Below, in pieces: positions 6,125-24,471 of a DNA stretch of 41,144 bases; position 1 is the first letter of the stretch, and every line of letters starts with the position of its first letter. The stretch covers positions 1-41,144 of the forward strand of contig JAHQWS010000137.1 of the NCBI GenBank assembly GCA_029856295.1. Direction: 5' to 3'. The notes beneath the pieces were generated by a model. The model did not search any database, was not told where the DNA came from, and was given only the letters and a program-made list of their open reading frames with translations. Made by a program: the position numbers and the translations under genes. This DNA comes from Promethearchaeia archaeon. GTDB taxonomy: Archaea; Asgardarchaeota; Lokiarchaeia; Sigyniarchaeales; SOKP01.

Positions 6125-7303
6125 TTACATCCTGTCGAAAAACAAGGCCCCATCGATAAATGAAAACGCAATACGCTTTTTCTTTATCCACTCCTCCCCG
6201 AACCTAGAATAATGCTTCCGAAACATATCATTTGATATGATAAATGCGTCTTTTCGCTTGGCATATTGCAGTATAAAATAGTCCGCTTCCGTGCCCCCAG
6301 GCGTTTCATCAAATTCATCTCTCTCTTTTAACGCCTTATATGCGTCTTGATTGTCGATTTTATGATGAAGATTTCTATCACTTAATACTTTAAACTGTGT
6401 TATTCCTAGAGAATGGAGCCTTTCGACTAACTGATAGAGAGTAGAGATCATTGGTCTGTTCTCACTATCCTTAATATCTAATGCGACATTGGCACCATCA
6501 ATTACAAAATAACACTCCTCCGCGTTATAAGGCTCATCGTCAATATAAATAATTTGATCCATACAGTTTTCATAGGCACTCGATGGTTCAATTACTTCAG
6601 TTGGAATAACTCCCTTGATCTCAATAATGCTCTCTGAGGGCACCTTAGCAAGCTCTCTGTGCCCAGAAGTAATGGTATCATTAAAAAAGCTATCTGGATA
6701 TGCTTTCAATTTTTTATAAATGTTATTTATGCGGAGTGCTAAATGATCAAGAAGCGTATCTTTTTCTTCTTGCTCTTTTTGGCTGGAACTATATGCATCT
6801 CCTAATTTCTTGGACTCTTGGGTAAGGAAAAAAGAGATAAATTTGGCAATGTCTTCAAATATCCGAATGTATGAGGCAAGCACCGTTTTTTTTAATTCTT
6901 TTGGAGTGATACTTCCCTGGGTAAACGCGCTTATCGTAGTCTTCAATGCTGTAAGTTCCCGCTTATCAAAAATGATACGCTCCAAAATGTCGTGGATATT
7001 TACTTCTGGAGCAAATTCGCCTGTCGAATCAAGGGATTCTCTATTTTGTGGTATAGCAAGATTATCTTCTGGAAGAATATTCTCTGTCTGCTCTTCATAT
7101 TCAAAGCTAGTAGGTTCTGGAGTAATCTCACTCTCTTCTAAAGCCCGAATCGCATCGTACTGTTCAAAATCATGCTCGTCAATACCCAACTCATTATTAA
7201 AAGTGTTATCCTGAGAAATAATTGTTTTCGATCGCTTGGTAGAGTTAGAATGGGAGCCACCCCAGGTAGTAAGATCCTTTTCTTTTGACATAGAAATGCT
7301 CAA
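6125..7303 (-). CDS. Protein with a C-terminal Zc3h12a/NYN-type (PIN-like) ribonuclease domain
   Basis: The C-terminal ~130 aa (FVIDGANVALD...FKVLSDRNL...EADYFILQYAKRKDAFIISNDMFRKH...WIKKKRIAFSFIDGALFFD) follows the Zc3h12a/N4BP1 pattern (VIDGSNVA...DD.FI...A......IVSND.YRD......RL..YSF....F). The N-terminal 260 aa is acidic and helical with no call. Confidence 0.7.
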   Translation of the reverse strand: MSISMSKEKDLTTWGGSHSNSTKRSKTIISQDNTFNNELGIDEHDFEQYDAIRALEESEITPEPTSFEYEEQTENILPEDNLAIPQNRESLDSTGEFAPEVNIHDILERIIFDKRELTALKTTISAFTQGSITPKELKKTVLASYIRIFEDIAKFISFFLTQESKKLGDAYSSSQKEQEEKDTLLDHLALRINNIYKKLKAYPDSFFNDTITSGHRELAKVPSESIIEIKGVIPTEVIEPSSAYENCMDQIIYIDDEPYNAEECYFVIDGANVALDIKDSENRPMISTLYQLVERLHSLGITQFKVLSDRNLHHKIDNQDAYKALKERDEFDETPGGTEADYFILQYAKRKDAFIISNDMFRKHYSRFGEEWIKKKRIAFSFIDGALFFDRM

Positions 7304-7934: not shown

Positions 7935-8465
7935 TTATTTTAAAGTATAATAGTCATTTTGTAACGCAATAAGAGAGCCTTTTTGGGTAAACCTGCTCAT
8001 TAATATAGGGATTTCATGTTCAGGAATATGATATTCAGGTGCTATCATTACGATCATATATCTTGGAAACCTATTAAATTGTAAGAAAAGGTCTTTTAAC
8101 AAAGCTCTAAATGCGTCTGCATAGTTAACATCAATTTCATCAGGGTTTGAAAGCTTTTTATGAAGGTCTGGTTGTTCGACAGAGTGCGACGCAATATGAA
8201 AATCATTATTTGCCCTTAAATCCGGCGTATGACCGGTCTTTTGTATCGCTAATGCGTTTTGCTTTTGTTTTACTGCATCGATTGCGCTACTCATTCCATA
8301 CACGATTTCGGTGTTGCCCGGCAATTTAGCCACTTGATGAACTCGATTACACGTAAGACATTTTTTGGTCTTTTGGACGGTTTTTACGTAGAGCATCCTG
8401 CCACATTTAAGACAGGCAAATATATAGTAGGGCGTCTCGTCTTTTTTCCACTTTTTAACTTCCAT
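7935..8465 (-). CDS. Zinc-ribbon protein (DUF1922-like N-terminus) with a C-terminal helical domain
   Basis: MEVKKWKKDETPYYIFACLKCGRMLYVKTVQKTKKCLTCNRVHQV is a CxxC..CxxC ribbon resembling the small archaeal DUF1922 ribbon as I recall it. I chose the start at 8465 because GAGGT lies ~8 nt upstream. The ORF track starts at 8513. Confidence 0.6.
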   Translation of the reverse strand: MEVKKWKKDETPYYIFACLKCGRMLYVKTVQKTKKCLTCNRVHQVAKLPGNTEIVYGMSSAIDAVKQKQNALAIQKTGHTPDLRANNDFHIASHSVEQPDLHKKLSNPDEIDVNYADAFRALLKDLFLQFNRFPRYMIVMIAPEYHIPEHEIPILMSRFTQKGSLIALQNDYYTLK

Positions 8466-8512
8466 ATACATTACCTCTTTAAGATAATAAAAAATTAGAA
8501 AAAAAAATAACA

Positions 8513-11224
8513 TTATTTATGGACGGGGATGCCACCTGATTTTCTCTTCGATTTACTGGAGGTGATAATTACGATTGACGGAACTGTAATTAAGGTGATC
8601 ATTATCGGAAGGGCCGTTTGATTAGAGGGCTCGATAATTTGTCTTTCTTCTGAATTATCCTGAGATGTGCTTTCTTTTCCTAAACTATCACTATTCCCGT
8701 ATACGCTGGATGTGGTTTGGATGGTTATAGGGAGCCGAACTTTCTCTATACCGCTATCTTTTACTAGGATATCTCCGTATACTATTGGATAGTTTTCTTC
8801 TTTATTCTCTAGATAAACAACTCCTTGATAATAGCCTTTTGTGCCATCCCAGTAAAAATCAGTAAAAGTGCCTGCTTGATCGTCGCTATTAAATTGCACT
8901 GTTATAGCAGATCCGAAATAATCAAGAACAATATTGTTAATTGATACATTCATGATAATTTCCGACCCTAATTCAACTGAGGGCGGGTAGATCGCAGTAA
9001 TTTTCATATCGTCATTTTTGGCCATGTCACAAATCCATAAAAACACCTCGTCACTTAGAACTTCTCTGTCCGACGTTAGATAAAACTCATTAGATTCATC
9101 TAGATAGATCTCCCTTACTAATTGATTGGTACGCAGGTTATCAAACACAATATTCAGGTCTAAAAGCTCCGAGATTTTATAACTATAATAGATATTTTTG
9201 ATATTTGAATAGTTAATATTTTGAACAACAAAGGTTTTTATTTTACCTTTTTCGGAGTCTAAACTCCCTGAGGCTATTAGATTCATAAGATAGGCCATAT
9301 AATAGGTATTTCTCAATCTGGTATCAATCTCATCACTATACCAAGGATCGTAATATAAGGTAGCTCCATCTCCCTGTTGACCTCGGATAAGATATGCGAC
9401 TAAGGCGCCTACATTAACACCGACATCAGAAATATCCCCTAATTCGAGCCAGTCAGCAAGAATTTTCAGCGACCTAATTGCAAAGTATGCATATTCTAAA
9501 TAAATATAATTATTTTGCTGCTCATCATCCAAATGACTCTTTAACACTGTGTTTGGCAAGAACCCGCCGTAATTCGAGTATGCATCATTTAAAAACTGAG
9601 AGTCTAAAATATATTGCACTAAATCATTTAAGTCACATTCGTTTTCGAAATTATCCAAGCCTTTTATGGTTCTTAAGATGTCCAACGCATAGAACGTGGT
9701 TTTAAGCGTATATGGTAACCCGATCTCATTGTATTTTTCGTCATACAGTCCACAGTAAAATTCAATTGGTCGAGAGCGAAAATCCATATTTTTTAACGAG
9801 TTATAGGTTAGGGATTGTTGGAACATGTGTAAAGATCCCCCAAAAAAATGATCGCCATAAGAATAATGATAATTTGAGAGGATGAGGTTATAGAGGGTCT
9901 CTTTAAAGTCCTTATCATCGTAGTCATCTATCCAATAAATAGATAACGCGCTTTTCATAATTGCGTGCATAAGCCTTAATGAGGTATCATCCTTAGAAAG
10001 AAGAGAAAATCCGTTGTCATATTGTTGAAAATACTTTTTTAAAGACGTTGCGATTTGATTCTTATCATCAGAAGATAATTGAGAGATCTCCCCGGTCTCA
10101 TCTAAGCCTCTAATGACCTGAAAAGTATCTATGAGCTCATGGTATGGATAGGTTGTAGAAGATTCCCAAATACCCCACGAATTGCGATGGTTTAGAATTA
10201 AATTGATTACTCCGATACGATCTATGCTTGAGTATCCCGTTAAATCAGACAACTGAAGTCCAAGAGCAGTGCCCACAATATCACTGTAATTTTTTGGGCT
10301 CAATTTAAAACTTATTTCAAAATATGGCACGCTGCTGTCATAATGTTTCTCTAAAAATTGATGGAACCCTGAATATGATATAATGTAATTAAGCATGTCT
10401 AAGCTTTTTAAACAGTAATATGAGCTCAGAAGAGTCACATCCAAATTATCCACACTTCCAAAATTGGCGACCTCATCATTGTAAAACCCGCCGTAGAATA
10501 TACTAGTTGTTGTGGTATTTTGTAAATCTGATATAAAATTTTCAATATCTGACCATTCTTCGTTATGTTCGCTTTTATCATCTTGAAGGGCATCTAATGT
10601 AAGAATTGCATAAAATGTGTTGTCCATTGTGGAAATTTTAAATTTTGGATGTAAGCTAGGTAAGTATGGCTGTCCGATAAATCCGCTAGTGTCTGTGTTG
10701 TAGCAGTCCCAGATGAATGTACCCGCTTTTTGTTTATCGATAGCAGTCAAGTTGCCTAGGATACTAAGTGATAACAAGGCATAACAATTCACCTCTAAGA
10801 CAGTCGTTAAAGAATAATATTTATAAGAAAAATCAGTCCCTAAATATCTTTTCGCGCCGCGATCCATAAACATTCCAGAGTTCTCATCATAATGAGCCAT
10901 GATATAGTTAAACGCTTCTGTCTGGTTAATTAAATCCAACATACCGATCGCTTTGAGAATATATAAGGCATAATAGGTTGCTTGAAGCGAGCTTTCATAG
11001 GTCTGAGAAAAGTAGTTTCGAGAGTTAAATTCATCGTATCTTTCATCAAATATATCATTGATGTATTCATATGTTTCTCCTGCGGCTATATATGGTTCAT
11101 TTAACATATGATAAGCGGATTCATGCAAAGGATTATTATTACGAGCCTCATATAATGGAACCATCATACTAACTAAGATACTAAATACTACTGCTGCAAA
11201 AATACACGTTTTTAGTAGTTTCAT
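8513..11224 (-). CDS. Cell-surface protein: signal peptide, ~10-11 prenyltransferase/terpene-cyclase-like alpha-alpha toroid repeats, beta-rich domain, Ser/Thr/Glu stalk, C-terminal TM anchor
   Basis: N-terminal MKLLKTCIFAAVVFSILVSMMVPLYEA. Recurrent helix motif (ATYYALYILKAIGML, NCYALLSLSILGNL, NTFYAILTLDAL, SYYCLKSLDML, TFQVIRGLDETG, TTFYALDILRTIKGL, YAYFAIRSLKIL, NTYYMAYLMNLI). C-terminal PIMITLITVPSIVIITSS followed by KSKRKSG. Confidence 0.7.
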   Translation of the reverse strand: MKLLKTCIFAAVVFSILVSMMVPLYEARNNNPLHESAYHMLNEPYIAAGETYEYINDIFDERYDEFNSRNYFSQTYESSLQATYYALYILKAIGMLDLINQTEAFNYIMAHYDENSGMFMDRGAKRYLGTDFSYKYYSLTTVLEVNCYALLSLSILGNLTAIDKQKAGTFIWDCYNTDTSGFIGQPYLPSLHPKFKISTMDNTFYAILTLDALQDDKSEHNEEWSDIENFISDLQNTTTTSIFYGGFYNDEVANFGSVDNLDVTLLSSYYCLKSLDMLNYIISYSGFHQFLEKHYDSSVPYFEISFKLSPKNYSDIVGTALGLQLSDLTGYSSIDRIGVINLILNHRNSWGIWESSTTYPYHELIDTFQVIRGLDETGEISQLSSDDKNQIATSLKKYFQQYDNGFSLLSKDDTSLRLMHAIMKSALSIYWIDDYDDKDFKETLYNLILSNYHYSYGDHFFGGSLHMFQQSLTYNSLKNMDFRSRPIEFYCGLYDEKYNEIGLPYTLKTTFYALDILRTIKGLDNFENECDLNDLVQYILDSQFLNDAYSNYGGFLPNTVLKSHLDDEQQNNYIYLEYAYFAIRSLKILADWLELGDISDVGVNVGALVAYLIRGQQGDGATLYYDPWYSDEIDTRLRNTYYMAYLMNLIASGSLDSEKGKIKTFVVQNINYSNIKNIYYSYKISELLDLNIVFDNLRTNQLVREIYLDESNEFYLTSDREVLSDEVFLWICDMAKNDDMKITAIYPPSVELGSEIIMNVSINNIVLDYFGSAITVQFNSDDQAGTFTDFYWDGTKGYYQGVVYLENKEENYPIVYGDILVKDSGIEKVRLPITIQTTSSVYGNSDSLGKESTSQDNSEERQIIEPSNQTALPIMITLITVPSIVIITSSKSKRKSGGIPVHK

Positions 11225-11273
11225 TTTTCATTTTAAAAATTTTTCTAGTAAATTGATCTCCCTTTCAATTAGA

Positions 11274-11291
11274 TTTATATAAAGAAAAAAA
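11274..11291 (-). promoter_or_regulatory. T-run + TATA-like promoter box for the 903-aa surface protein gene
   Basis: The minus strand reads TTTTTTTCTTTATATAAA, ~50-65 nt upstream of the ATG at 11224. Confidence 0.5.
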
Positions 11292-11460
11292 TCTTTTTTG
11301 GCAGAAATTAAGCCGTACGTTCAAAACTGCTTTGTTTGATCCGATCCTCAATGGACGCAAGTTCTTTCACATTTAAAACTTGCCTGTGGAGAAAGATCTT
11401 AATAAACAAACTTAATTTGCCTTACACCTTTCGCTCTAAGATCAAATGGTTATGTTCAAT

Positions 11461-11479
11461 TTTTTTCTTTTATATATAT
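11461..11479 (+). promoter_or_regulatory. T-run + TATA-like promoter box for pcn
   Basis: TTTTTTCTTTTATATATAT, ~60 nt upstream of the ATG at 11538. Confidence 0.5.
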
Positions 11480-11537
11480 CGGACTTATCTTTGAAATAAT
11501 CTCAATTTTTTGTAAGATAAAAAAGTGAAATAAAAAC

Positions 11538-12386
11538 ATGACCGAAGTGAAAACCACCTTAAAGAAAAGGCTAAAAGAACAATTTAAGATTAAAAAAGAA
11601 AATTCGGGGTTCCTAAAGAAAATAATCGAGACTCTTTCGGCGCTTATCGAAGAGACTCAGTTTATAGTGACTCCGGAAGGGTTCCATATAAAAGCCATGG
11701 ACCCGAGTAAGGCATGTATGGTCTCACTTTTCATTGGAAAAGAGAATTTCGATGAGTTCGAGTGTAGTTTACCATGTAAATTAAGCTTGAACTTAGATAA
11801 TTTTGATAAAATCTTGAGGCGGAGCACCAATAATGATCATCTTATGCTTACCTATAATGAGGAGGAACAGAAGATTAAAGTTCAAATAATTCCAGAGGGG
11901 AGCACGTATTCGCGTACATTTAGTCTTGCCCTACTTGACATAGAATACGAGGAAATACCAGTAGAAAACCTTAGTCGCATCATATTCCATACGAAATTTT
12001 TCCTTGATATAGATTTTTTAATACAGGTGGTCAAAGACGCAGAAATCTACTCTGACACCTTTAGCATGAAGTCCATACAGGGGCAAGGGTTAGAGTTCTA
12101 TTCCATAGGATCGATAGGGGAGATGGGATATAAAATCTCTCCCGAAGATATTCCGAACTTAGACCTTGAAATTATCGAGGAGAGCTGCGATTCATTCTCC
12201 ATTGAATACCTCAAAAAAATTACAAAAATTCACAACATTGCCGAAAAAACAGATATTTCTCTACGCACGGATCATCCCTTAAAGATGGAAATCTCTCTCA
12301 TCGAGGGAGGTGAATTGTTATACTATCAGGCTCCAAGAGCTGAGAAAGATGAAATAAACGGCAGTGATGAAATTAATGATTTATAA
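11538..12386 (+). CDS. pcn: DNA polymerase sliding clamp (PCNA) with a basic ~25-aa N-terminal extension and an acidic C-terminal tail
   Basis: FLKKIIETLSALIEETQFIVTPEGFHIKAMDPSKACMVSLFIGKENFDEFEC matches the PCNA N-terminal domain pattern (L....ID.L..LVDE..F....DGI...AMD.S.VALV.L.L....F.EY). The C-terminal ..LYYQAPRAE matches ..LAPRIE. At 282 aa it is longer than the usual ~250. Confidence 0.9.
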   Translation: MTEVKTTLKKRLKEQFKIKKENSGFLKKIIETLSALIEETQFIVTPEGFHIKAMDPSKACMVSLFIGKENFDEFECSLPCKLSLNLDNFDKILRRSTNNDHLMLTYNEEEQKIKVQIIPEGSTYSRTFSLALLDIEYEEIPVENLSRIIFHTKFFLDIDFLIQVVKDAEIYSDTFSMKSIQGQGLEFYSIGSIGEMGYKISPEDIPNLDLEIIEESCDSFSIEYLKKITKIHNIAEKTDISLRTDHPLKMEISLIEGGELLYYQAPRAEKDEINGSDEINDL

Positions 12387-12389
12387 GTA

Positions 12390-12416
12390 GTACTTTTATT
12401 TTTTCTTAGTTTTTAG
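12390..12416 (+). terminator. Oligo-T tracts downstream of pcn
   Basis: gtacttttattttttcttagttttt lies immediately after the pcn stop codon. Confidence 0.4.
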
Positions 12417-12595
12417 TTAAATCTGAAATTATAAGATATAAGTAACAATAATTAAAAAGAAAAGGTATAGGGGATTGAGAAAAAAAAGAAATCTTTTGAA
12501 ATTGCCCCAAAAAGAACTAATAGGACTATTGCAAATAGGGATATCACGGATTTTTTGCTAAAAAAAAGAAAAACTGATATTTAATTATGTCAGAT

Positions 12596-15500
12596 TTATT
12601 TTTTTTTATTTTTAACACCGCATCCAGGACAATATAGAGAATTTGGCTCTATTATCGTTCCACATAACTCACAAGTCCTTACTATATTGATCTCCACGTG
12701 TTCTTTTACTTTATGATAAAAATCTGAAAAAATATTATACGTATTAACAACTTTCGCTTCTAAATCTCTGTCGTGTTCATGAAAATTATTACAATAAGTT
12801 AGATAATTATGTAACTTTTCTTGTGAAAATGGAAGTTTCTGGTTTATAGAAAGATAATTACAAAACGCTTCCAAATCTTTTTTGGTGATGGGAGTAATGA
12901 CCTCATCTATGCGATATAACTTTTGATATACATTCATGAGAAACGTTTTTATGTAGAATTTTTCAATGTTTAGTGCCGATTTTAGATCTTTAGTAGTAAT
13001 ATGCTTATAAATTTGAAATAATTCATAATATAGGTCATCTAATTCTTTGGCCAAAACTTTGTTAAGATTTTCGTCTTCAAGAACACTCTCAGGTGCAATA
13101 TTCATAGTTTCGTTCTCAATATGGATGTCTCGATCAAAGTTTTGTTCTACGACCTCAACTGAAATATCCGTCATTTGTGCTTTTTTTGTCTGAAAGTAAT
13201 CATCTACGGCTTTTTGATAGTGCTCTCCAACTTGATAAGAAGTTCGCATGGTCTCTTGACCTCCCGCATTTTTCGGATGGGACTCTACTAAATATCTCTG
13301 CGTGATAAGGATAGTAAACAGATCATTTTTCAATTTCTTCAGTTCTCTCTTATCGTGCGTGGTCATTTTGGCTTTTTCATGAATCACTTTCTTCAGCTCA
13401 TCCTTAATCTGTCTCTCAGAGATCGGAAGCTTATGCACCATCTTTAGACCATTTAATAAGTTAATAATCTCAGGAATAAATTGCGAGTACTTTCCGAAAT
13501 CTTTTTCGAAAATGGTCTTTCTGGTGTGCTCTAAAATGCGCTTTTCAGTTAAATTGAGGTCATACCCCTGCTCTTTCATGAACTCGGCAATTTCATCCAT
13601 ATTCATGGGTGACACCTGCTCTATGTCATCTACCTCAAATTCTACAGGAAATGTTTGGTTCTCGTCATCTCGTTTTACTAATATTTCAGTAGGCTTCATA
13701 CTCTTGAGGTATTCAATTTGGTAGGTATCATTTCGTGACTTGCTATAATATCCGGTTCCATGAAGCTCTTGAAGGCCCATTATATTTTTCAGCACTTTTA
13801 TATCCCGATAATCGGTGGCTTGGAAGGTGATAAAGTTTTTAAACAATTTTAAGAAATGGTGGTGCAAGTAATGCACTTGATTGGCCAGTACCACCGTTCC
13901 AAACCCTTCTCGTCGCAGGGGCTCGAAAAATTTGTCGATGATCCCAAAATCCAGTTGTTTATCTAACGATTTCTCATCAAACACCAGATCTAAGTGAGGT
14001 AAGAAGAGTACTTTTTCACAAAACGCATCAAAATTTGAAATATAATGAATGATTTTCGATAAAATGACGAACATTAAAAAGTTTTTTTTCTTCAGATCAT
14101 TGGACATGGACAGATCAACAATGACGGTTTTATCATCTGAGAGAAACGTTTGAAACGTTACCGCTTGCTCTTGCCCCGTTTGGGTGCTATGTAGAAACGT
14201 TATATCATCTTCCGTGAAATCTTCAAACATAGAAATCAATTCCTCGACATGAGGATTTTTCTTCCAGGATACTTGATTCTTGAGCTCTAACGCAAGTGAT
14301 GCCAGGTCTAAGTCTTTATGTTCTTGTATAAATTTACGCAACCTGTCAACGGAATAGCGGTCTTTTTTAAATGTGAGGGCATACGAATCATACATATAGT
14401 CCAAATAGGCAGTATTTTTCTTTTCATATAGAATATCTGAATTAAGCGGGTCGATACTAAAGGCCTTGCCCATTTTAAAATGAACGATATCGTACTGGTG
14501 TTGAGTGTCCTCAAAATATTTGATTAGCCTTGACCACTCTCCGCTATAATCAAAGATAATAGAAGGGACCCCTTGCTTGACCAACTGGATTACCATCCTC
14601 ATTGCCAATAGATCTCTCTCACGGGCAGTTCCGTTGACAATTAACACATTATCCAATTGATCTCTGGTAAGTCCGGCAGGGGCTTCTTTTTGCCAAAACT
14701 CGGTATTGATGGTATGGCCAAATGCAATAAAGTTTTCTAAACTTAAAGGAGTATTAAATTCGGCGGCCAGTCTAGTATCAATTCCTTTTTTAAACACATC
14801 CTCGATTCTGATAAGATGCATTAACACTTTACCTTGAAATAAGAGGTAATGTAAATGAGTGCCCGAAAGAGTGTATAACTTGGTCTTTAAAATCTCAGAG
14901 AGGCACCCCGAAACAAGTTTCTGTGAGCTAAGCGGAGTCACATAAAACTCGTCCAGCCGGGCAGTAAACCTATCTTCCAAAAACGCGATGTAATTTTGTG
15001 AGCGATTTGCTAATTCAATGAAATCGTGTTCTGTAATTGAATTCACGTCTTCAAACGATTTGTAGGCATAGGTAGATGCAGTCAGGATAACTTGCCATAC
15101 ACCTGAACGAGTTTTTAGCCAACCCTCTCCTTCTATATCGCTGGTAACGTATTCTTTGAGCTTACTCTGAGTGTTAGGATTTAATTTGTTATATGCTATT
15201 CTATCAAAGCGATAGAAACTTAAAGGGCTGGCCATTACGGTGTAGATAAAAGGAATTTTCCTTTCAATTAGTTCCAAGTAATATTTACCGGGGTAAAAAT
15301 CGATAATCTTAGCTGCGTTCTCATTATATTGAAATCTTACTGCCGCATGGTTGATATTAAACATTTTTTCGCAAACAAGTAGCGTATTATTTATGAGAAA
15401 AAAGAGCGCATCCGAAATTCCTCTGTATCGAAATGCTTGAATTCCTTGAAAGGGCTTTACAATGTTGAACTCTTTACTCTTCAGCAGATTATAAGCGGTC

Positions 15501-16534
15501 AAATAATAGAGCGGCGCTCTCCACCACACCCAGAGCATCACAACTAGTAAGCAAAGGTCTATAAGCACTATAATCCAAAAGGAAATGTTAAATAACAACA
15601 AAAATAATGAGGTACAATAGAGAACAAATAAACAGAAACCCGTTTTCATGGCATAGGAGCTTATACTGATGTTCGGTTTTATGACCTCCATCTGTTTTGG
15701 AACGGTATAGGGGATGTCTCGTATGACAAACGACCTGAGAGCATGGATTAATTGATTTCCAGATAATAACTGAACCTTATAATGATGAAAATCACCTACA
15801 AAATCGGCGCGCATGGAATCTACAAACCGTCCAAATACATCTTGGAGCGTCGTTAATTTTCGAGCGGTAAGTATTCCCGATGCATCATAATAGGTCGCAA
15901 AATAGATGGCCGTCTGAAAGGATCGCATCGGTTCTTCATGTTCTTGGGATAAATTCTCTTCAAACCTTCTTGATGCCGTGCTAGAAATAATGGGCTGTTG
16001 ATGGATCTGGAAGGTGTAGGGCATGGCATGTTTATTGAGCACTTTAATATATTGATTTAAGGTCGCTTTCGTAGTTTCTGGGAGACCCTCGACTTTAAAG
16101 ATACTGAGAGCCACTGTTTTTAACTGCTCTTTATTGGTAATATATAATACATTTGCCGCATCATCAGTAAAAAAAAAGGTAAAATCACTGAACATATTCA
16201 CTTTACGATACTTGCTAAATGGCGTGGAAAAACCCCCTCTCAAACCAAATATCGTGTCAGAAAAGGTAACCATAAAAAGGATCACAGTGAACACTCCCAC
16301 AAGCACTCCCAACATAGGATTAGAACTGATAAGATAGAGAGCAATCATAAAAAATATGGCAACAGCGAGTACTGAAAGCCCTTTTATATTTGCATAGAGC
16401 ACATTAATATCGGTAAATGAAGGGTTATCGTCCCATATGTCTAAATATTTACTTTTACTCGGCTTTTGTTCAGTCGCTTCTTTCTTCTTGTTGGCAAACG
16501 GGTGATCCGAATAGACTTTTTTACTTCTACTCAT
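12596..16534 (-). CDS. Giant membrane-anchored HerA/VirB4/FtsK-like (DUF87-type) protein with degenerate Walker A/B, helical tail and C-terminal zinc ribbon
   Basis: TM hairpins at about aa 52-95 and 297-345, each followed by a ~200-aa soluble module. Residues 625-920 align by eye to the HerA/DUF87 core: LIVNGTARERDLL..VPSIIFDYSGEWS (versus ..G.TGSGKS....vlIfD.hGEY), VIVDLS, VLFLPHLD (versus llvlEEAH), REGFGTVVLANQVH (versus GRKyGvgl.l.sQrPs), FQATDYRD. No G....GK[ST] occurs anywhere in the 1312 aa. The C-terminus is CELCG..x11..CPGCG. Confidence 0.75.
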   Translation of the reverse strand: MSRSKKVYSDHPFANKKKEATEQKPSKSKYLDIWDDNPSFTDINVLYANIKGLSVLAVAIFFMIALYLISSNPMLGVLVGVFTVILFMVTFSDTIFGLRGGFSTPFSKYRKVNMFSDFTFFFTDDAANVLYITNKEQLKTVALSIFKVEGLPETTKATLNQYIKVLNKHAMPYTFQIHQQPIISSTASRRFEENLSQEHEEPMRSFQTAIYFATYYDASGILTARKLTTLQDVFGRFVDSMRADFVGDFHHYKVQLLSGNQLIHALRSFVIRDIPYTVPKQMEVIKPNISISSYAMKTGFCLFVLYCTSLFLLLFNISFWIIVLIDLCLLVVMLWVWWRAPLYYLTAYNLLKSKEFNIVKPFQGIQAFRYRGISDALFFLINNTLLVCEKMFNINHAAVRFQYNENAAKIIDFYPGKYYLELIERKIPFIYTVMASPLSFYRFDRIAYNKLNPNTQSKLKEYVTSDIEGEGWLKTRSGVWQVILTASTYAYKSFEDVNSITEHDFIELANRSQNYIAFLEDRFTARLDEFYVTPLSSQKLVSGCLSEILKTKLYTLSGTHLHYLLFQGKVLMHLIRIEDVFKKGIDTRLAAEFNTPLSLENFIAFGHTINTEFWQKEAPAGLTRDQLDNVLIVNGTARERDLLAMRMVIQLVKQGVPSIIFDYSGEWSRLIKYFEDTQHQYDIVHFKMGKAFSIDPLNSDILYEKKNTAYLDYMYDSYALTFKKDRYSVDRLRKFIQEHKDLDLASLALELKNQVSWKKNPHVEELISMFEDFTEDDITFLHSTQTGQEQAVTFQTFLSDDKTVIVDLSMSNDLKKKNFLMFVILSKIIHYISNFDAFCEKVLFLPHLDLVFDEKSLDKQLDFGIIDKFFEPLRREGFGTVVLANQVHYLHHHFLKLFKNFITFQATDYRDIKVLKNIMGLQELHGTGYYSKSRNDTYQIEYLKSMKPTEILVKRDDENQTFPVEFEVDDIEQVSPMNMDEIAEFMKEQGYDLNLTEKRILEHTRKTIFEKDFGKYSQFIPEIINLLNGLKMVHKLPISERQIKDELKKVIHEKAKMTTHDKRELKKLKNDLFTILITQRYLVESHPKNAGGQETMRTSYQVGEHYQKAVDDYFQTKKAQMTDISVEVVEQNFDRDIHIENETMNIAPESVLEDENLNKVLAKELDDLYYELFQIYKHITTKDLKSALNIEKFYIKTFLMNVYQKLYRIDEVITPITKKDLEAFCNYLSINQKLPFSQEKLHNYLTYCNNFHEHDRDLEAKVVNTYNIFSDFYHKVKEHVEINIVRTCELCGTIIEPNSLYCPGCGVKNKKK

Positions 16535-16536
16535 AG

Positions 16537-17406
16537 CTACACTATCCCTCCTTTTTTAAAGTATTGTCTATAGAGCATGATAAAGAAACATCCCGTGCCA
16601 AAAAATGTTAAGGAGAATATGCTTATTAAAGCAGTGAGTTTTGGATGGTATATCGTCTGAATTGCCACCGCCAGTCCCAGTACAAAAAATAGCAGGAACA
16701 GCCCAATCATCAAATATCCAAAAATATTGGGAATTGAGCGCTGATAGATAAGATTATCTTTTAGCCGTCCCCGAAGCACAATTTTTCCACCTGCATGTTG
16801 CTGCAACGCAACTTTGGCGTTTTTAAAGGTAATCATTTTTTCGAACTTCTCTTTATCATATGCCTCATTCAATTCTTTTTGCATTTGTATCTCCTGCTCT
16901 TTAAATCCGTGAATAATGACATCTTTTAGCTTCTGATCGCTTTTTTTTCTCTTTACCTGTTCTGAAATTCCTGAAAGAAACGAGTAAACCCTCATTTCAC
17001 TATTTTGAGCGATAGCTTCCAAATCTAATTTTTCAAATAAGTTTGGAATCTCTAATTTTCTAAAATCATAATATAACTTATACACTTGAGAGATGAATTC
17101 CATAGGGATATTTCCTTTATGTTTACTAAATAAGAGTTCAGTTTTTTTGATGGATTCGATTACATCCTCTTGAAATAGAATCATTTTAAAATTATGATAT
17201 AGTATAGAGTTAAGTAAGGTCATATAATGAAAAATAGCCTCATGAGCATCTTTATCTCTTGGGCGAATCCCTAATTTCACTCCAATCTCGTCTAATACGT
17301 TTCCAACCAAAACTAAACTAAGAGCCGCTAACTTTTGGTAATTGTGGGTCTGATTACATACCTTAATTAGCGTCTTTAACTTAGGATCAATCAATTCGTA
17401 GTTCAT
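16537..17406 (-). CDS. Operon protein 3: helical cytoplasmic domain plus C-terminal TM hairpin (289 aa), unknown function
   Basis: Start overlaps the upstream stop (ATGA at 17403-17406) and the ORF ends 2 nt before the 1312-aa gene. C-terminal IFGYLMIGLFLLFFVLGLAVAI and ALISIFSLTFFGTGCFFIML are two TM helices. Confidence 0.7.
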   Translation of the reverse strand: MNYELIDPKLKTLIKVCNQTHNYQKLAALSLVLVGNVLDEIGVKLGIRPRDKDAHEAIFHYMTLLNSILYHNFKMILFQEDVIESIKKTELLFSKHKGNIPMEFISQVYKLYYDFRKLEIPNLFEKLDLEAIAQNSEMRVYSFLSGISEQVKRKKSDQKLKDVIIHGFKEQEIQMQKELNEAYDKEKFEKMITFKNAKVALQQHAGGKIVLRGRLKDNLIYQRSIPNIFGYLMIGLFLLFFVLGLAVAIQTIYHPKLTALISIFSLTFFGTGCFFIMLYRQYFKKGGIV

Positions 17407-18149
17407 GAACCCGTCCTCTTTTTTATTGGTTGTGGGTGAAAGATCTCCAGCTCTTCGAGAACATCAAAAGAGTCGTCGCCGAATTTAAGTTTTAATTGCT
17501 CATTGGCAATTAATTTATCCATATCAACTGGGTCTTGTATGTCTTTCACATATTGTGCTACCGCATTTTTTGCAGAATGTTCCTGAGATTGAAAACCAGT
17601 GACCGTATAATAATAAAACAGTGCATAAGGAAACACAAAAATAAAGCCAAATATTTGAAGGCAGTATCCAGGACCTATAGAATATTGATACACCATATCC
17701 GCATCTTTATCTTTGACATGCAAAAAAGGGAAATAGAGATCATTGGGGACTAAATAAAATACGGGAAAAGCAAAAATATAAAACAACATGAGCATAAGCA
17801 GAAAAATATTAGCATAGGCATTTATCGTTAATTTTTCGAGCTCCTCGTATTGTTCCACGTCCCGAAAGATGACGGTATATGCTGAAACTGCAAGCATTAT
17901 AATATATATAATAGTCAAAGTTATCGGAATGTGAAAGGTGCTAGGCTTGAGGGTATTATTGACGGTTGAGTTCTCAGAAAACACCGTCGTCCATCCTGTA
18001 ATAGGGTTATAACTCCAATATGATTTTAAGCTTAGATGGGAATCGTACACTTGATAGATATACCACTCTAAAAATAAAGACACAAACGACAAAAGAAGCC
18101 CCAGCACATAAAGAATTCGAAACTGTTTACGAGTGTTAGCTATCATCAT
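17403..18149 (-). CDS. Operon protein 2: 4-TM membrane protein (248 aa) with an acidic C-terminal tail, unknown function
   Basis: Four long hydrophobic segments rich in aromatic residues. Begins 7 nt downstream of the stop of the 595-aa gene. Confidence 0.7.
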   Translation of the reverse strand: MMIANTRKQFRILYVLGLLLSFVSLFLEWYIYQVYDSHLSLKSYWSYNPITGWTTVFSENSTVNNTLKPSTFHIPITLTIIYIIMLAVSAYTVIFRDVEQYEELEKLTINAYANIFLLMLMLFYIFAFPVFYLVPNDLYFPFLHVKDKDADMVYQYSIGPGYCLQIFGFIFVFPYALFYYYTVTGFQSQEHSAKNAVAQYVKDIQDPVDMDKLIANEQLKLKFGDDSFDVLEELEIFHPQPIKKRTGS

Positions 18150-18156
18150 TTTTCAA

Positions 18157-19944
18157 TCAATCCTCCAAGAACGCGCTATATTTTGAGATCATTTGCCCTT
18201 TCAGTGATTCTTCTTTCGATTCCCTAGAACCTTTAGCTTCTATATCCATTTCCTCTCTTTCATACTGAGAAGCTATGGTGATATTTCTTTCTTTTCTCAA
18301 TGGAATATCTTCTTGGTCCTCGAGAGCTTTTTCACTTTCAATTTCAATGACGCAGGAGAATTCACAAGATTTCCCAAACCATTCATAAAGGGCTTGGTCA
18401 AGTTCATGGGCGCTCATGGTGTCTTTTATGCTATATACATCAACCTCATCTATCTGAACGGGTTTAAGAAAGTAGGGTGTCTGATAGTCTGCTTTGATAG
18501 TTTTTTGGGATTTTATAAAAGTATTATAGATAAACCACATAACAAACCCATAAATAACTAGTGCGGCAACTCCTAGATTGGTAAACGTCGCTAAAAGAAA
18601 GATATTTTGTAGGAGCGTAATAAATAAAAATATAATACCAAACAATAAGAAAGGAATCGAGTATTTTTGAAAATCGTTTTTCATCTTGGCAAGTGATTTG
18701 TCATATTGTATAACCGCATTTTCTTGTGAAAAGAATTCCCTGAGAGAGACCTTTTTTTCCAAGAATTTTACCAAGGCCTTTATCGCTTCACATTCAACCA
18801 CGTGTAGATTTATCTTGCGCTGATATGAAAACATAGCAGTTTTTTCAAGAAACGCGGGCTCACTTATACTCACTAAAACTGGATGTATGACTGGTTTATA
18901 TTCCTTTTGATTAGCAGCAATAAATAAGGGTGTTCCGTCTTTGGTTTTTATAATAGATAAAGTCTTTTTTGCCAGTTTTTTGCGTAATAATTGAAATAAA
19001 GTTCCTCCCATGGTTATATTTTGAAATACCTCTTTTTGAGCAGATACTAAACTCTCTTTAGATATCTCGACTGGGATGTTGGTAGGCTTGTAGATAATAT
19101 GCTCGTCAGAGATCAGCAAAATCCCTCTTAGGTGGCTTATTTTCACTGGAAAAAAGACAAATATCCCTACAGAGTTATTTACATCCAGTATTTTATAAAC
19201 CAATACATCAATATCTTTCGAAATACCTCTGAGCAGGTTTGATTGCTTGTCAAGAATGGAATATCCTAACTTCTCAAAGCGAAGTATTATCGTTTTTTTC
19301 ACTTGGATAAGCTCTTCTTTGCTCAACATCTCCCCGTTAAGTTTATTATAGCCCTCATTTTCATAGGGAATAAAAACTTCTTGAAGGTGTTCTTTTTCTG
19401 GTTTTTGAGGTGTAAGCTCGTTTTCAATAAAGGGCTCTATTTCCTCAATAGCTGTATCTGGTTGATTGATTGACGGGAAGCTTTGTATACTATCGTGGTC
19501 ACTCGGGTTTGTGAAAAGTATTCGTTCCTTATTTTTAACGGAAACGAGTTGTTCTATCTCCGCGAATTCTTGGAATTGGGCTTCTGTCTCATCTTGAAAA
19601 GGTTCTTCTAATGGTTCCTCTTCTTCTAATATCGAATAGCTGTTTAATGTCACATTATCGTCTTTAGCATCTGATTGTTTCTCAAAAACGGGCGCGAGTT
19701 GCTTTTCATAGGTTGGCTCATTTATTACAGCATCATGAGTACCGTCCCCATTATGTTTTGTAAACTCCTGTGCGTTTTCGATAATTTTTTTTGAGGTTGC
19801 AGCTCCAAACCCTTTTACTTCTGCCAATTGTTCAGGAGAAAGGGCTGCCAATTGATCAACACTAGTAATCCCGGCACTAATTAATTTATTTTTGGTAGAC
19901 TCTCCAATCCCATCTATATTGGTAAGCTCATATTCTAATTCCAT
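18157..19944 (-). CDS. Operon protein 1: N-terminal tandem helix-hairpin-helix (HhH2) DNA-binding domain, acidic linker, possible restriction-endonuclease-like fold, 2 TM helices, C-terminal domain
   Basis: LTNIDGIGESTKNKLISAGITSVDQLAALSPEQLAEVKGFGAATSKKIIENAQEF contains two GhG hairpins as in the RadA N-terminal domain or ComEA. Residues 208-270 (ILRFEKLGYSILDK..KDIDVLVYK..GIFVFFPVKIS) resemble Mrr/Hjc-type cores. The TM pair lies at about aa 429-476. Confidence 0.75.
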   Translation of the reverse strand: MELEYELTNIDGIGESTKNKLISAGITSVDQLAALSPEQLAEVKGFGAATSKKIIENAQEFTKHNGDGTHDAVINEPTYEKQLAPVFEKQSDAKDDNVTLNSYSILEEEEPLEEPFQDETEAQFQEFAEIEQLVSVKNKERILFTNPSDHDSIQSFPSINQPDTAIEEIEPFIENELTPQKPEKEHLQEVFIPYENEGYNKLNGEMLSKEELIQVKKTIILRFEKLGYSILDKQSNLLRGISKDIDVLVYKILDVNNSVGIFVFFPVKISHLRGILLISDEHIIYKPTNIPVEISKESLVSAQKEVFQNITMGGTLFQLLRKKLAKKTLSIIKTKDGTPLFIAANQKEYKPVIHPVLVSISEPAFLEKTAMFSYQRKINLHVVECEAIKALVKFLEKKVSLREFFSQENAVIQYDKSLAKMKNDFQKYSIPFLLFGIIFLFITLLQNIFLLATFTNLGVAALVIYGFVMWFIYNTFIKSQKTIKADYQTPYFLKPVQIDEVDVYSIKDTMSAHELDQALYEWFGKSCEFSCVIEIESEKALEDQEDIPLRKERNITIASQYEREEMDIEAKGSRESKEESLKGQMISKYSAFLED

Positions 19945-20007
19945 TTTTACGACCTTTTTTTACATTATTTTCATTTTTGATTTGATTTGATCCTAAAAAC
20001 TATTCTT

Positions 20008-20024
20008 CTTATATAAAGAAAAAA
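20008..20024 (-). promoter_or_regulatory. T-run + TATA-like promoter box for the four-gene membrane operon
   Basis: The minus strand reads TTTTTTCTTTATATAAG, ~65-80 nt upstream of the ATG at 19944. No comparable box occurs inside the operon. Confidence 0.5.
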
Positions 20025-20175
20025 TGGAACGATATGATATGCTCTTAGGATATTTTAGAAATTTCCCGGTAATAAGTTGTTTATATAATCTGTTTTTTTT
20101 CTCTCTCTACAGTTTGATGCAATTTTTTTCTTTCTTTAAATCAGAGTCCGTTCACTGAATTTTGCACCCACTCCA

Positions 20176-20195: not shown

Positions 20196-20213
20196 TCAAC
20201 TGAATTGTTATTC

Positions 20214-20990
20214 ATGTACGATATGTTTATCATCTTGATGTTTTTTCCCATATTTCTAGGGGTTTCGTATATTATAACACGATGGCTCCTACGTATTGAT
20301 TATGGTCCGTTTAGTAACGTTCTATGGGCTCTGCGCTTTATCGGAGTTGCCGTCCATGAGCTCAGTCATTTTACAATGTGCATTATCGTAGGAATACGCC
20401 CAAAAGGGATTGTTATACGATTGCGATCCAGAATGACTGGAAATGTAAATCCCAGCGGAAAAGTATCAGTAGATTGGCATAATGGCACGTTTTTACAAGC
20501 GATGTTCATCTGTCTCGCCCCGCTTATTTTCGCGACATGGCTTTTCTTTTGGTCACTCTCAATTGTATTTACTGCACACCTAAACCCCTTTATTCGAATC
20601 ATCGCCGGATTTTTTTGCGTCTCCCTTTTCTTAGGTGCCACCCCTTCAAAGCCGGATTTTCGAATTATTGGTCATTGGTTTAAAAAAAATCCGAAATATT
20701 CGCTGTACCAACTGACTCTATTAGTGCTTTCAGGATTTTTCATGTGGGCCGTTTTGGTCTATTACAGCATTGTATTACCCCTTGATCTTATCTATTATAT
20801 CTTAGTTGAGATAGGGTACTATATCCTTAAATACGGTTTTCGAGCAATTGGCTGGGCAGTATTCAAAGTCGCCTCATTTCACAATCCCCAAAGGTCTACC
20901 TCACCGCGAATTAAGTATGGGCAATTTATGGCAAGACGATTTAAACCATCTAAACCCTCAAAATTTGGCAAAAGGGAGGCTCCGTGGTGA
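20214..20990 (+). CDS. Polytopic membrane protein with an HExxH motif (putative intramembrane zinc metallopeptidase, DUF3267/M50-like)
   Basis: FIGVAVHELSHFTMCIIVG sits at a membrane boundary and there are about 6 TM helices. I moved the start to the first ATG (20214) because the TATA-like box at 20176-20195 leaves little leader. The ORF track uses TTG at 20205. Confidence 0.6.
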   Translation: MYDMFIILMFFPIFLGVSYIITRWLLRIDYGPFSNVLWALRFIGVAVHELSHFTMCIIVGIRPKGIVIRLRSRMTGNVNPSGKVSVDWHNGTFLQAMFICLAPLIFATWLFFWSLSIVFTAHLNPFIRIIAGFFCVSLFLGATPSKPDFRIIGHWFKKNPKYSLYQLTLLVLSGFFMWAVLVYYSIVLPLDLIYYILVEIGYYILKYGFRAIGWAVFKVASFHNPQRSTSPRIKYGQFMARRFKPSKPSKFGKREAPW

Positions 20991-23849: not shown

Positions 23850-24471
23850 CTTGATCTTCCTCAAAGATAATTAGTGAATGATTCAATTCGATATCGGTCA
23901 GCTTTTTATGGGTTTTCCTATACGAGAGGATCGTCTCTCCTAGTAATAAACCCATCTCGGAGGGATAAGTAAGATTATTACCATTTTCCGTAAATAGATA
24001 GGGGTAGGTAGTCTTTAATGTTTTCATGTTTTTGAGCAATTCATTATTAATAAACTTTAAATTAAAACCCTTTCCTCTATTTACGTACTTAAAAGTGTAC
24101 GTGATATCACTGAATAGCTTCGCACTGGATTGAGTCATCTGGATCTGTTTCGGAATTAAAGGGGTTGTATCATCTTTATCGGCGATAAGATAGATGGCAC
24201 CATTGACTATTTTCCTTTTTAGGCGGTGATATTTAAAGTTATTTTTAAAGAGTTTCTGAAACTTTAAAACTAACGTAAGAATTTTATTGGCATCTTGAGT
24301 AGAGAGCTTAAGATACTCCGCCAGCTTCTCATAATTTAATTTTTTATGATAATTACCTTCAAATGCTTCTAGTGCTTTTAGTACGTTATTTAGTGCAGAA
24401 AGTGTCTCTCTTCTATCCAATCGTTTAGCTTTTCTATTAACGCTCTCGTGTACATTAGCATCCGATACCAT
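23836..24471 (-). CDS. Hypothetical protein (211 aa), co-transcribed with and overlapping the hef start
   Basis: Its stop overlaps the hef start by 14 nt (29 nt with the TTG start). A TATA-like box at 24491-24507 lies just upstream of its ATG. No motif recognised. Confidence 0.6.
   Translation of the reverse strand: MVSDANVHESVNRKAKRLDRRETLSALNNVLKALEAFEGNYHKKLNYEKLAEYLKLSTQDANKILTLVLKFQKLFKNNFKYHRLKRKIVNGAIYLIADKDDTTPLIPKQIQMTQSSAKLFSDITYTFKYVNRGKGFNLKFINNELLKNMKTLKTTYPYLFTENGNNLTYPSEMGLLLGETILSYRKTHKKLTDIELNHSLIIFEEDQDVRT

Follow-up and report, generated by a model that had tools for sequence, protein, structure and literature searches.

The Ced system of the Sulfolobales and the Ted system of the Thermoproteales are derivatives of type IV secretion systems (T4SS). 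CedB and TedB are the ATPases that power DNA translocation, and the loci carry repair genes, e.g. HerA and Rad50 (PMC9905601). A cluster of four genes, termed here G1 to G4, is present in a 41,144 nucleotide (nt) stretch of DNA from a Promethearchaeia archaeon (assembly GCA_029856295.1, contig JAHQWS010000137.1, forward strand). This whole stretch is referred to as the window, and its numbering is used throughout unless another locus is named. G1, G2 and G3 are predicted membrane proteins and G4 is a large protein that displays the fold of VirB4. Unlike CedB and TedB, which are active, G4 is catalytically dead. No description of an Asgard VirB4/HerA/T4SS-like cluster was found in the literature that was accessible. 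A first reading of the window (the sequence-only reading) had taken the cluster for an undescribed DNA-handling or translocation system, and indeed there is no clean match of the set to Ced/Ted, a conjugative T4SS or a viral packaging module.

The interpretation favored here is that G1–G4 form a membrane-anchored, non-catalytic VirB4-type platform to which DNA is docked on the cytoplasmic side of the membrane. This is a tentative reading, with a probability of about 0.45.

Fold and domain architecture of G4

G4 is predicted to encode a protein of 1312 amino acids (aa). Searches of Pfam, NCBIfam, PADLOC and PHROGs gave no DUF87, HerA, VirB4 or FtsK match for this sequence and only a weak zinc ribbon, and no PDB sequence was matched either by the single sequence or by a 10-sequence profile. 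Twenty distant relatives of G4 were not assigned to any ATPase family in Pfam, VirB4, CagE, TraC and DUF87 included. Since the sequence libraries are blind to the HerA/VirB4 likeness, the class of G4 is visible by fold only.

An AlphaFold2 (AF2) model of G4 residues 113–1312 that was built on a multiple sequence alignment of 84 sequences has a mean predicted local distance difference test score (pLDDT) of 86.0 and a predicted template modelling score (pTM) of 0.68. An earlier model from a four-sequence alignment had a pLDDT of 37.8 and was unusable. The top five Foldseek matches of the 84-sequence model in the PDB are all R388 TrwK/VirB4 structures (E-values from 2.4e-17 to 2.4e-15, probability 1.0), with alignments of 909–990 columns and a target-normalised template modelling score (TMt) of 0.43–0.54. 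A second tier consists of Sulfolobus HerA (E-value = 2.4e-10), followed by HerA-NurA, Sir2-HerA, DUF4297-HerA and TdpAB complexes (2e-10 to 1e-7). The structure of the VirB4 C-terminal domain alone (4ag5) is matched with an E-value of 6.5e-7, a TMt of 0.65 and a root mean square deviation of 5.4 Å. The far greater significance of the full-length TrwK matches suggests that the N-terminal-type modules of G4 contribute to the VirB4 likeness. A search of a viral structure library returned the same protein classes; similar proteins are encoded by large phages. On the strength of the model, assignment of G4 to the VirB4/HerA-class two-domain fold is secure. The HerA/VirB4-type P-loop domain that the sequence-only reading had proposed is therefore upheld in its fold by AF2 and Foldseek, but not in its catalytic motifs, which are lost family-wide.

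The earlier description of two copies of a transmembrane (TM) hairpin followed by a soluble module also holds. The two copies represent a true internal duplication (hhalign probability 96–97%, E-values of 1e-9 to 1e-10), and the second module probably corresponds to the N-terminal domain of VirB4. The RecA-like core follows, and beyond it is a tail of approximately 300 aa. The tail likely includes a winged helix, judging from the AF2 secondary structure, and this region aligns with the segment of P0148, a distant G4 homolog, that gives weak PadR and HTH_34 matches. The remainder of the tail is helical. A zinc ribbon at the C-terminal end is present as had been noted, however the match is weak and the ribbon is found only in the window and in its closest relative, P0001.

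The degenerate nucleotide site of G4

Motifs were counted in 153 family sequences (150 listed and three from a word-indexed search). None of the 153 displays the [AG]xxxxGK[ST] motif at the P-loop, where the sequence NGTxxxR[E/D] is found instead. The position of the Walker A Lys is occupied by Arg in 77% and by Lys in 4% of sequences (n = 100). The acidic pair of Walker B is replaced by Pro846-His847 in G4 (LFL-P846-H847); Pro is present in 82 of 94 sequences (87%) and is followed by His or Asn.

The register of these motifs is given by L017_794, a 794 aa protein encoded next to P0148 in locus L017. It has an intact Walker A (GIPKTGKS) and Walker B (LLIILEEAHEL), and it matches Pfam HerA_C with 24.6 bits (cutoff 22) and PADLOC HerA with an E-value of 6e-14. 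The core hidden Markov model (HMM) of the G4 family matches L017_794 with 41.7 bits over about 300 residues. In this alignment the Glu-Glu of Walker B corresponds to Pro846-His847 of G4, and REYGVGLMVIDH corresponds to REGFGTVVLANQ of G4. Extension of the register upstream places the Walker A Lys-Ser opposite Arg640-Asp641. An alignment of the G4 profile with TrwK by hhalign, which is non-significant (E-value = 0.27), has the same register, i.e. NGTARERD with GQSSSGKT and PSIIFD with PTIVAFD.

By canonical sequence criteria G4 is thus a pseudo-ATPase and not a motor. It is under selection rather than a decaying gene, because the replacement residues are themselves conserved. As the site is dead in all members, the operon has no motor of its own. 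This tells against the earlier suggestion of a DNA-translocation machine, and self-powered translocation appears unlikely.

P0148, the distant G4 relative of L017, lies in a tight operon of six genes (L017:4449-12931, + strand). These encode a 372 aa protein, a CxxCxxCC protein, a site-2 protease (S2P)-like protein, a 257 aa protein, the G4-like protein with a C-terminal winged helix-turn-helix (wHTH), and the active HerA-type ATPase. The pairing of a dead with a live subunit in this operon may represent the ancestral state.

Conservation of the cluster in Asgard genomes

A HMMER search with a G4 profile (residues 343–1285, cutoff E <= 1e-3) detected 224 representatives of clusters formed at 50% identity. 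Members of a distant branch score 75–190 bits. Sixty-five of the 153 sequences analyzed above are at least 1000 aa in length. Named members of the family are all annotated as hypothetical proteins and are from Promethearchaeota metagenome-assembled genomes (MAGs). The distant branch is also of Asgard origin, as an ESCRT-II gene adjoins one of its members. The word-indexed homolog search found three G4 proteins even with a 10-sequence profile, compared with the 224 representatives from the exhaustive HMMER search. Indexed searching therefore badly under-reports this AT-rich, fast-evolving family.

Homologous loci were collected with tblastn and ORF extraction (ORF, open reading frame) from three homolog contigs, from a scan of GTDB species representatives that added ten more, and subsequently from the more divergent loci L021 and L023. 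The ten scan loci are labelled Promethearchaeota, Hermodarchaeota and, in one case, 'Odinarchaeota'. All loci whose contig is long enough keep the gene order G1-G2-G3-G4, the genes being separated by short gaps or overlapping, for a total of 13 loci. Co-occurrence of the four genes outside of the window, which the sequence-only reading had left to a survey, is thus found in 13 independent Asgard loci. The presence of full-length orthologs in these loci indicates that G1–G4 are real genes and not chance open reading frames. Full-length identities range from 24% to 75%, the lowest values being ~33% for G4 and ~24% for G1, and about 190 columns are invariant among ten aligned orthologs.

Several loci show variations. 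In L021 a type IA topoisomerase gene (Toprim and Topoisom_bac domains; L021:5472-7670, - strand) is on the opposite strand and separates G1–G3 from G4 and the downstream gene G5, which is described below. In L008 the G4 ortholog is split into two open reading frames of 238 and 1039 aa (L008:about 9940-13760, + strand), owing to a frameshift, to pseudogenisation or to an error of assembly. L015 has G2-like (E-value = 1.5e-14) and G3-like (E-value = 1e-3) genes.

Organization of the locus

The four minus-strand open reading frames were recovered exactly as first placed when the sequence was read again (Table 1). The junctions are likewise as described, with a 7-nt gap between G1 and G2, an ATGA overlap between G2 and G3, and a 2-nt gap between G3 and G4. 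A GGAGG-like motif is found 8–13 nt 5′ of every internal ATG, within the upstream gene. The T-run and TATA-like element that had been noted ahead of G1 is present and is kept in the two closest loci. The block CATTTTTTCTTTATATA (about positions 20009–20025) is the sole well-conserved stretch of an otherwise diverged spacer in the window, L001 and L003. From these features it is plausible that G1–G4 form one transcription unit, and the recurrence of the same order and tight spacing elsewhere agrees with the earlier view of one tightly coupled unit. The window is AT-rich with a GC content of 30–40%, and composition is continuous across the operon and its flanks.

The GGAGGA Shine-Dalgarno-like motif of G2 overlaps the codons of the C-terminal KYSxFLED of G1 (18157–18183, - strand) in the window. 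This stretch may therefore be under dual constraint.

Table 1. Coordinates of the cluster genes, their domains, expression signals and neighboring genes
Feature	Position	Strand	Remarks
G1	18157..19944	-	ORF 595 aa; membrane-tethered HhH2 protein; 11 orthologs aligned; 13 loci
G1 HhH2 domain, residues 6-59	19768..19929	-	Pfam HHH_5 E 4.6e-14
G1 conserved central domain, residues 205-428	18661..19332	-	conserved block in ortholog alignment
G1 TM hairpin, residues about 430-478	18511..18657	-	hydropathy; short uncharged loop, Lys-rich flanks on both sides
G2	17403..18149	-	ORF 248 aa; polytopic membrane protein, ~4 TM
G3	16537..17406	-	ORF 289 aa; ~225-aa cytoplasmic N-terminal domain (predicted) and C-terminal TM hairpin
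G4	12596..16534	-	ORF 1312 aa; VirB4-like pseudo-ATPase, two TM hairpins
G4 TM hairpin 1, residues about 52-95	16250..16381	-	hydropathy
G4 soluble module 1, residues about 100-296, alpha/beta	15647..16237	-	homologous to module 2 (hhalign); AF2 secondary structure
G4 TM hairpin 2, residues about 298-340	15515..15643	-	hydropathy and AF2 helices
G4 soluble module 2, residues about 343-600	14735..15508	-	duplicate of module 1 (hhalign)
G4 RecA-like core, residues 600-965, HerA/VirB4 class, catalytically dead	13640..14737	-	Foldseek, HMM bridge, motif counts
G4 degenerate Walker A, N634-G-T-A-R-E-R640-D641	14612..14635	-	R640 = Lys position, D641 = Ser/Thr position
G4 tail, probable winged helix, residues about 1040-1105	13220..13417	-	AF2 pattern H-H-H-beta-beta
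G4 C-terminal CxxC...CxxC zinc ribbon	12620..12673	-	Pfam Zn_ribbon_15 E 2e-3; lineage-specific
Putative archaeal promoter, T-run and TATA-like TTTATATA	20006..20025	-	~65 nt upstream of G1 ATG; sequence read
Oligo-T runs 3′ of G4 stop, candidate archaeal terminator	12557..12573	-	sequence read
HExxH polytopic membrane protein, 261 aa, TTG start	20205..20990	+	divergent from G1; HELSH residues 51-55 (alignment numbering; from 48 in trimmed ORF)
G5 homolog fused to NYN nuclease	6125..7303	-	392 aa; ~5 kb away; G5 HMM E 1.4e-20
G5-like region of 6125-7303 ORF	about 6701-7006	-	G5 HMM
C-terminal NYN domain of 6125-7303 ORF	about 6155-6505	-	Pfam RNase_Zc3h12a E 1.1e-13
Hef	21696-23864	-	window neighbor
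SF2 (superfamily 2) repair helicases elsewhere	L006:3013-5100; L021:1-1411	-; -	neighbors of cluster

The membrane proteins G1, G2 and G3

The G1 protein consists of an HhH2 domain, an acidic linker, a conserved central domain, a TM hairpin and a C-terminal domain. The HhH2 domain at the N-terminal end, seen by the sequence-only reading, is well supported in Pfam (Table 1). The best PDB matches of the G1 profile are the RadA/Rad51 N-terminal domain, Topo V and the C-terminal repeats of NusA, all of them via HhH2. The central domain, for which the sequence-only reading had suggested a possible restriction-endonuclease-like fold, has no match in Pfam or, as a domain profile, in the PDB. The C-terminal domain ends in the invariant peptide KYSxFLE[DE]. 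G1 has no signal peptide and an acidic region of 430 aa precedes the first TM segment. Given this absence of a signal peptide, and a tight hairpin with Lys-rich sequence on either side, the positive-inside rule predicts an N-in/C-in topology, and therefore a cytoplasmic HhH2. An analogy with ComEA had been drawn for G1, but the predicted topology speaks against it, and G1 as a ComEA-like outside receptor was rejected on this prediction. G1 is confined to the Loki/Hermod-type cluster and is missing from the distant G4 branches. In L008 the G1 ortholog (L008:5990-8335, + strand) is 782 aa long and has an NYN domain (Pfam E-value = 1.8e-17) inserted between the HhH2 and central domains.

G2 had been described as a protein with four TM segments. 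Three of these are strong by hydropathy, but the fourth is weaker. Two short loops of about 40 and 25 residues are predicted to be outside of the cell, and a conserved C-terminal helix, Q[ED]P[LI]D[LM]DKLIAxEELK, is predicted to be cytoplasmic. A visual comparison of this helix with the ESCRT MIM1 consensus showed no fit, thus a MIM1-type motif was rejected. In G3 hydropathy locates the C-terminal TM hairpin previously noted at residues of about 228–279.

No family match was found for G2 or G3 in Pfam (orthologs included), NCBIfam, PADLOC or PHROGs, and their profiles match nothing in the PDB. Pfam gave no VirB6, VirB8 or VirD4 signal in G1–G3 or their orthologs, although such tests are insensitive. 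Comparisons by hhalign of G1–G3, G5, the TM hairpins and the HExxH protein with R388 VirB2, VirB3, VirB5, VirB6 and VirB8 gave probabilities of 1% or less throughout, and this test too is insensitive. There was no hhalign signal between the hairpins of the system themselves.

In G1, G3 and G4 each hairpin loop comprises a few uncharged residues, between flanks rich in Lys and Arg. The positive-inside rule predicts almost the whole mass of G1–G4 to be in the cytoplasm, with outside loops in G2 only. Such a distribution argues against both the ComEA analogy and an elaborate extracellular apparatus.

Accessory genes

The cluster had been viewed as a unit of just four genes. This does not hold, as a small gene termed G5 and an S2P-like metalloprotease gene recur as partners.

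ORF clustering places G5 directly 3′ of G4 in nine loci, where it encodes a small helical protein of about 107–127 aa. G5-like genes are also found behind distant G4 relatives, i.e. in L016 (E-value = 3e-5) and, weakly, in L018. In the window the G5 homolog is not adjacent to G4 and is fused to an NYN nuclease domain (Table 1). On the domain matches, NYN has been joined to the system twice and independently, in the G5 of the window and in the G1 of L008.

The gene divergent from G1 encodes an HExxH membrane protein. Homologs are beside G4-family genes in L001, L003, L015, L017, L018 and L022 (E-value = 1.6e-30 for L022), so that the gene accompanies the family in at least seven loci and in four different arrangements. 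In L023 there is no more than a gene call that matches M50 weakly. The HExxH motif is invariant in eight homologs, and a second motif reads GAxPSxxD. The second motif of canonical S2Ps is NxxPxxxLDG. Six of the eight members match M50B, M50 or DUF3267 in Pfam (M50B six, M50 four with a best E-value of 5e-6, DUF3267 three), while the window protein itself reaches an E-value of 0.24. The PDB matches of the family profile are S2Ps only, i.e. aq_1964 (E-value = 0.003), MJ0392, RseP and SpoIVFB. These similarities lean toward a putative, divergent protease of the site-2 (M50) type. A canonical M50 protease with CBS domains is encoded elsewhere in the window at positions 27050–28168.

Genomic neighborhood

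Of the 13 complete loci, 12 have a gene for Hef or for a Hel308-like helicase no more than a few kb from the cluster. The exception is L023, where neither is found within the 8-kb flanks. Hef is present in eight loci and a Hel308-like gene (with Helicase_dom4_arc) in seven, and in several the Hel308-like gene is divergent from G1. PCNA, FEN1 and topoisomerase genes are also near the cluster. The persistence of helicase adjacency where G4 identity has fallen to ~33% is suggestive, but not conclusive, of a functional link.

No integrase, relaxase, pilin, capsid or att-like features were found nearby, in agreement with the sequence-only reading, which had noted no adjacent pilin, secretin, relaxase or integrase gene. 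A mobile element or viral module was considered and rejected, given a composition like that of the flanks, the syntenic housekeeping flanks and the lack of an integrase or relaxase. PADLOC shows no match for any component of the window, and NurA, Sir2 and DUF4297 domains were not found among the neighbors.

Other neighbors recur. A 903 aa protein (8513–11224, - strand) has a prenyltransferase alpha-alpha-toroid domain, together with a hydrophobic segment at the N-terminus and a hydrophobic anchor at the C-terminus. L001, L009, L018 and L023 likewise encode prenyltransferase-domain proteins close to the cluster or to a relative of it. The gene that follows in the window encodes a DUF1922 zinc-ribbon protein (7935–8513), which is recurrent as well. 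A KaiC/AAA_22-like P-loop protein of 238 aa (25918–26634, + strand) and its 100 aa partner (25616–25918) are kept in the flank of the three closest loci. In L003, a Promethearchaeota MAG, a group II intron-type reverse transcriptase gene (RVT_N, RVT_1 and GIIM domains; L003:16206-17705, - strand) lies ~2.4 kb downstream of the cluster.

Proposed function and alternatives

In the proposed platform the complex would be chromosomally fixed and would probably derive from a T4SS/HerA-class machine that has lost its engine. G4 would act as a membrane-anchored, possibly oligomeric scaffold and G1, G2 and G3 as its co-translated membrane partners. The RadA/Rad51-type HhH2 of G1, on its long acidic linker, and the winged helix of G4 would hold DNA at the inner side of the membrane. 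The duplicated N-terminal modules of G4 may offer docking sites for the KYSxFLED tail of G1 and the C-terminal helix of G2, in parallel to the docking of VirB3 and VirB8 tails on the N-terminal domain of VirB4. G5, NYN-fused in the window, would be an accessory component, and the S2P-like protease could serve to set free the hairpin-anchored subunits or to turn them over. Movement or processing of the DNA would be left to enzymes recruited in trans, of which Hef and Hel308 are obvious candidates, together with NYN nucleases. A role in replication or repair is thereby conceivable.

Several points weigh against this proposal. Formation of a complex, the oligomeric state and binding of DNA by G1–G4 are inferred. 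HhH2 domains can also make protein contacts. Further, L022 has G4 with the HExxH gene directly downstream and no G1–G3 within 8 kb. This, together with the lack of G1 in the distant branches, marks the HhH2 protein by its gene distribution as an add-on of one subfamily and not as part of the ancestral core. Part of the adjacency to helicase, PCNA and FEN1 genes may be inherited synteny and not a functional link. Finally, the Arg at the Lys position and the conserved acidic residue next to it could serve in nucleotide binding or in an allosteric role.

The strongest rival, though itself unlikely, is that the cluster represents a third T4SS domesticated in archaea and serves to move DNA across the membrane, in analogy to Ced/Ted. 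G4 would then be a non-catalytic gate or platform, and the conduit would be formed by 12 TM segments per protomer set (two from G1, four from G2, two from G3 and four from G4). The motor would act in trans (Hef/Hel308), with ComFA, which drives DNA uptake in Gram-positive competence, as a parallel. The VirB4-like fold fits such a role, and HhH2 with a nuclease are classic ingredients of DNA uptake. Repair genes are carried by Ced/Ted loci (PMC9905601), and Hef/Hel308-like, FEN1, PCNA and topoisomerase genes recur here. In L017 an active HerA-type ATPase is directly behind the pseudo-ATPase. However, an active ATPase is in the operon at none of the 13 core loci, whereas the known T4SS, Ced and Ted all use a catalytically competent VirB4. 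There is also no pilin-like small gene with two TM segments and no VirB6, VirB8 or VirD4 signal; extracellular loops are predicted for G2 only (~40 and ~25 residues), and the HhH2 is predicted to be cytoplasmic.

A somewhat smaller likelihood is given to regulated intramembrane proteolysis, in which the S2P-like protease would free the membrane-parked G1 (HhH2) and G4 (wHTH) upon a membrane or envelope signal, so that they could act on the nucleoid. The topology resembles that of SREBP/S2P or RseA/RseP circuits. G1 in particular has an SREBP-like layout, i.e. a DNA-binding N-terminus, an acidic region, a tight two-TM hairpin and a C-terminal domain, with both ends predicted to be cytoplasmic, and the membrane parts of G1, G3 and G4 are hairpin anchors only. 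The S2P-like gene keeps its place beside G4-family genes in at least seven loci with varied gene orders, however it is missing from the immediate neighborhood in L006–L014. The window HExxH protein is below Pfam thresholds, and its role as a protease is putative. HhH2 binds DNA without sequence specificity, which would be unusual in a released regulator, and proteolysis leaves the need for a 1300 aa VirB4-like scaffold unexplained.

A defense system built on a HerA scaffold, comparable to Sir2-HerA or DUF4297-HerA, is very unlikely. Its VirB4/HerA-like ring would sense foreign DNA at the membrane and activate NYN or protease effectors. Many of the Foldseek matches are HerA defense complexes, NYN is fused to components twice, there is a protease-like partner, and P0148, whose neighbor is of the HerA class, has a weak match to PADLOC mad8 (E-value = 0.014). 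Yet the window components have no PADLOC match and NYN is present in some lineages only. The cluster is at a conserved, syntenic housekeeping site in deeply diverged genomes and not in a variable island, and defense HerA needs ATP hydrolysis, while G4 is dead.

A decayed remnant of an integrated conjugative element or of a virus packaging module, without present function, could account for the VirB4-like fold, the dead site and the similar proteins of large phages, but it is hardly credible in view of the intact open reading frames at 33–75% identity, the operon kept across 13 loci, the 65 full-length representatives, a composition like that of the flanks, the lack of integrase, relaxase, capsid or att-like features, and P-loop substitutes (Arg 77%, Pro 87%) whose conservation points to purifying selection on a new function.

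The non-catalytic docking platform is thus preferred. An extended form of it, which is distinctly unlikely and is set between the proteolysis and defense alternatives, holds that a widespread, vertically inherited, T4SS-derived pseudo-ATPase complex tethers chromosomal DNA to the membrane on its cytoplasmic side and that an S2P-type protease controls its release or remodelling. If true, this would be a prokaryotic membrane-chromatin tether with a topology like that of eukaryotic inner-nuclear-membrane tethers and SREBP-type hairpin-anchored proteins, and it would be a third, mechanistically distinct archaeal domestication of the conjugation machinery. Through the present analysis a large unannotated family without a Pfam model, from the archaeal lineage closest to eukaryotes, is assigned both a fold and an evolutionary origin. 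A VirB4-type protein with a lost ATP site and conserved substitutes widens the known fates of conjugation machinery beyond Ced/Ted. The list of parts, i.e. an HhH2 tether, a winged helix, NYN, an S2P-like protein and Hef/Hel308 neighbors, points to DNA handling at the membrane. Chromosome organization, DNA exchange and membrane biology in Asgard archaea all bear on eukaryogenesis.

Comparison with known systems

In FtsK, TM segments at the N-terminus are combined with a RecA-like domain of the ring type and a DNA-contacting winged helix at the C-terminus. FtsK/SpoIIIE resembles G4 in this overall logic only. Unlike G4, FtsK is an active pump; its Foldseek matches are far weaker, with none in the PDB top 50, and there is no KOPS-type evidence.

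ComEA displays its HhH2 outside of the cell by means of an N-terminal anchor. Both ComEA and G1 are membrane-anchored HhH2 proteins, however in G1 the HhH2 is at the extreme N-terminus and is predicted to be cytoplasmic.

HerA is the second-tier structural match, and a bona fide HerA-type ATPase aligns with the core HMM of the G4 family. HerA often scaffolds a nuclease partner, and here NYN is attached to components of the system. Unlike HerA systems, the cluster has no NurA, Sir2 or DUF4297 partner, G4 is membrane-anchored and dead, and its N-terminal modules are closer to VirB4 by E-values.

In its manner of working the cluster would be closest to a T4SS inner-membrane platform that became domesticated, as happened with Ced and Ted (PMC9905601). 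The cluster resembles Ced and Ted in that it is archaeal, chromosomal and domesticated, with a VirB4/HerA-like protein accompanied by membrane proteins and linked to repair genes. It differs from them in having no recognizable VirB6-like CedA/TedA channel of 6–7 TM segments and no recognizable VirB2-like CedA1/TedC pilin; G2 has ~4 TM segments and there is no small stand-alone gene with two. Conversely, Ced and Ted are without an HhH2 membrane protein, an S2P-like partner and G5, and they belong to Thermoproteota, not Asgard archaea. As far as could be found, a cytoplasmic HhH2 tether, G5, an S2P-like protein and NYN fusions, as these parts are predicted here, are undescribed for T4SS, Ced and Ted alike.

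The cluster differs from a conjugative T4SS in context and partners. It is chromosomal and set among housekeeping genes, and VirB2, B3, B5, B6, B8, B11, VirD4 and relaxase partners were not detected. To our knowledge no other T4SS-class platform is kept as a pure scaffold, a statement made without a literature search on inactive VirB4 homologues. G4 also differs from VirB4 itself. The Lys/Thr of Walker A is replaced by Arg-Asp/Glu and the acids of Walker B by Pro-His/Asn; the hairpin and N-terminal-type module are duplicated; a wHTH and a helical tail of ~300 aa are added; and similarity at the sequence level is absent, as seen in the hhalign E-value of 0.27 and the lack of a Pfam or NCBIfam match. 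Nevertheless VirB4/TrwK of R388 (PDB 7o42, 7o43 and 8rtd) is the best structural match of G4, over both the N-terminal and RecA-like domains. The TM hairpin ahead of the N-terminal-type module presumably recalls the VirB3-VirB4 fusions, and in the core of both proteins strands and motifs follow one another in identical order.

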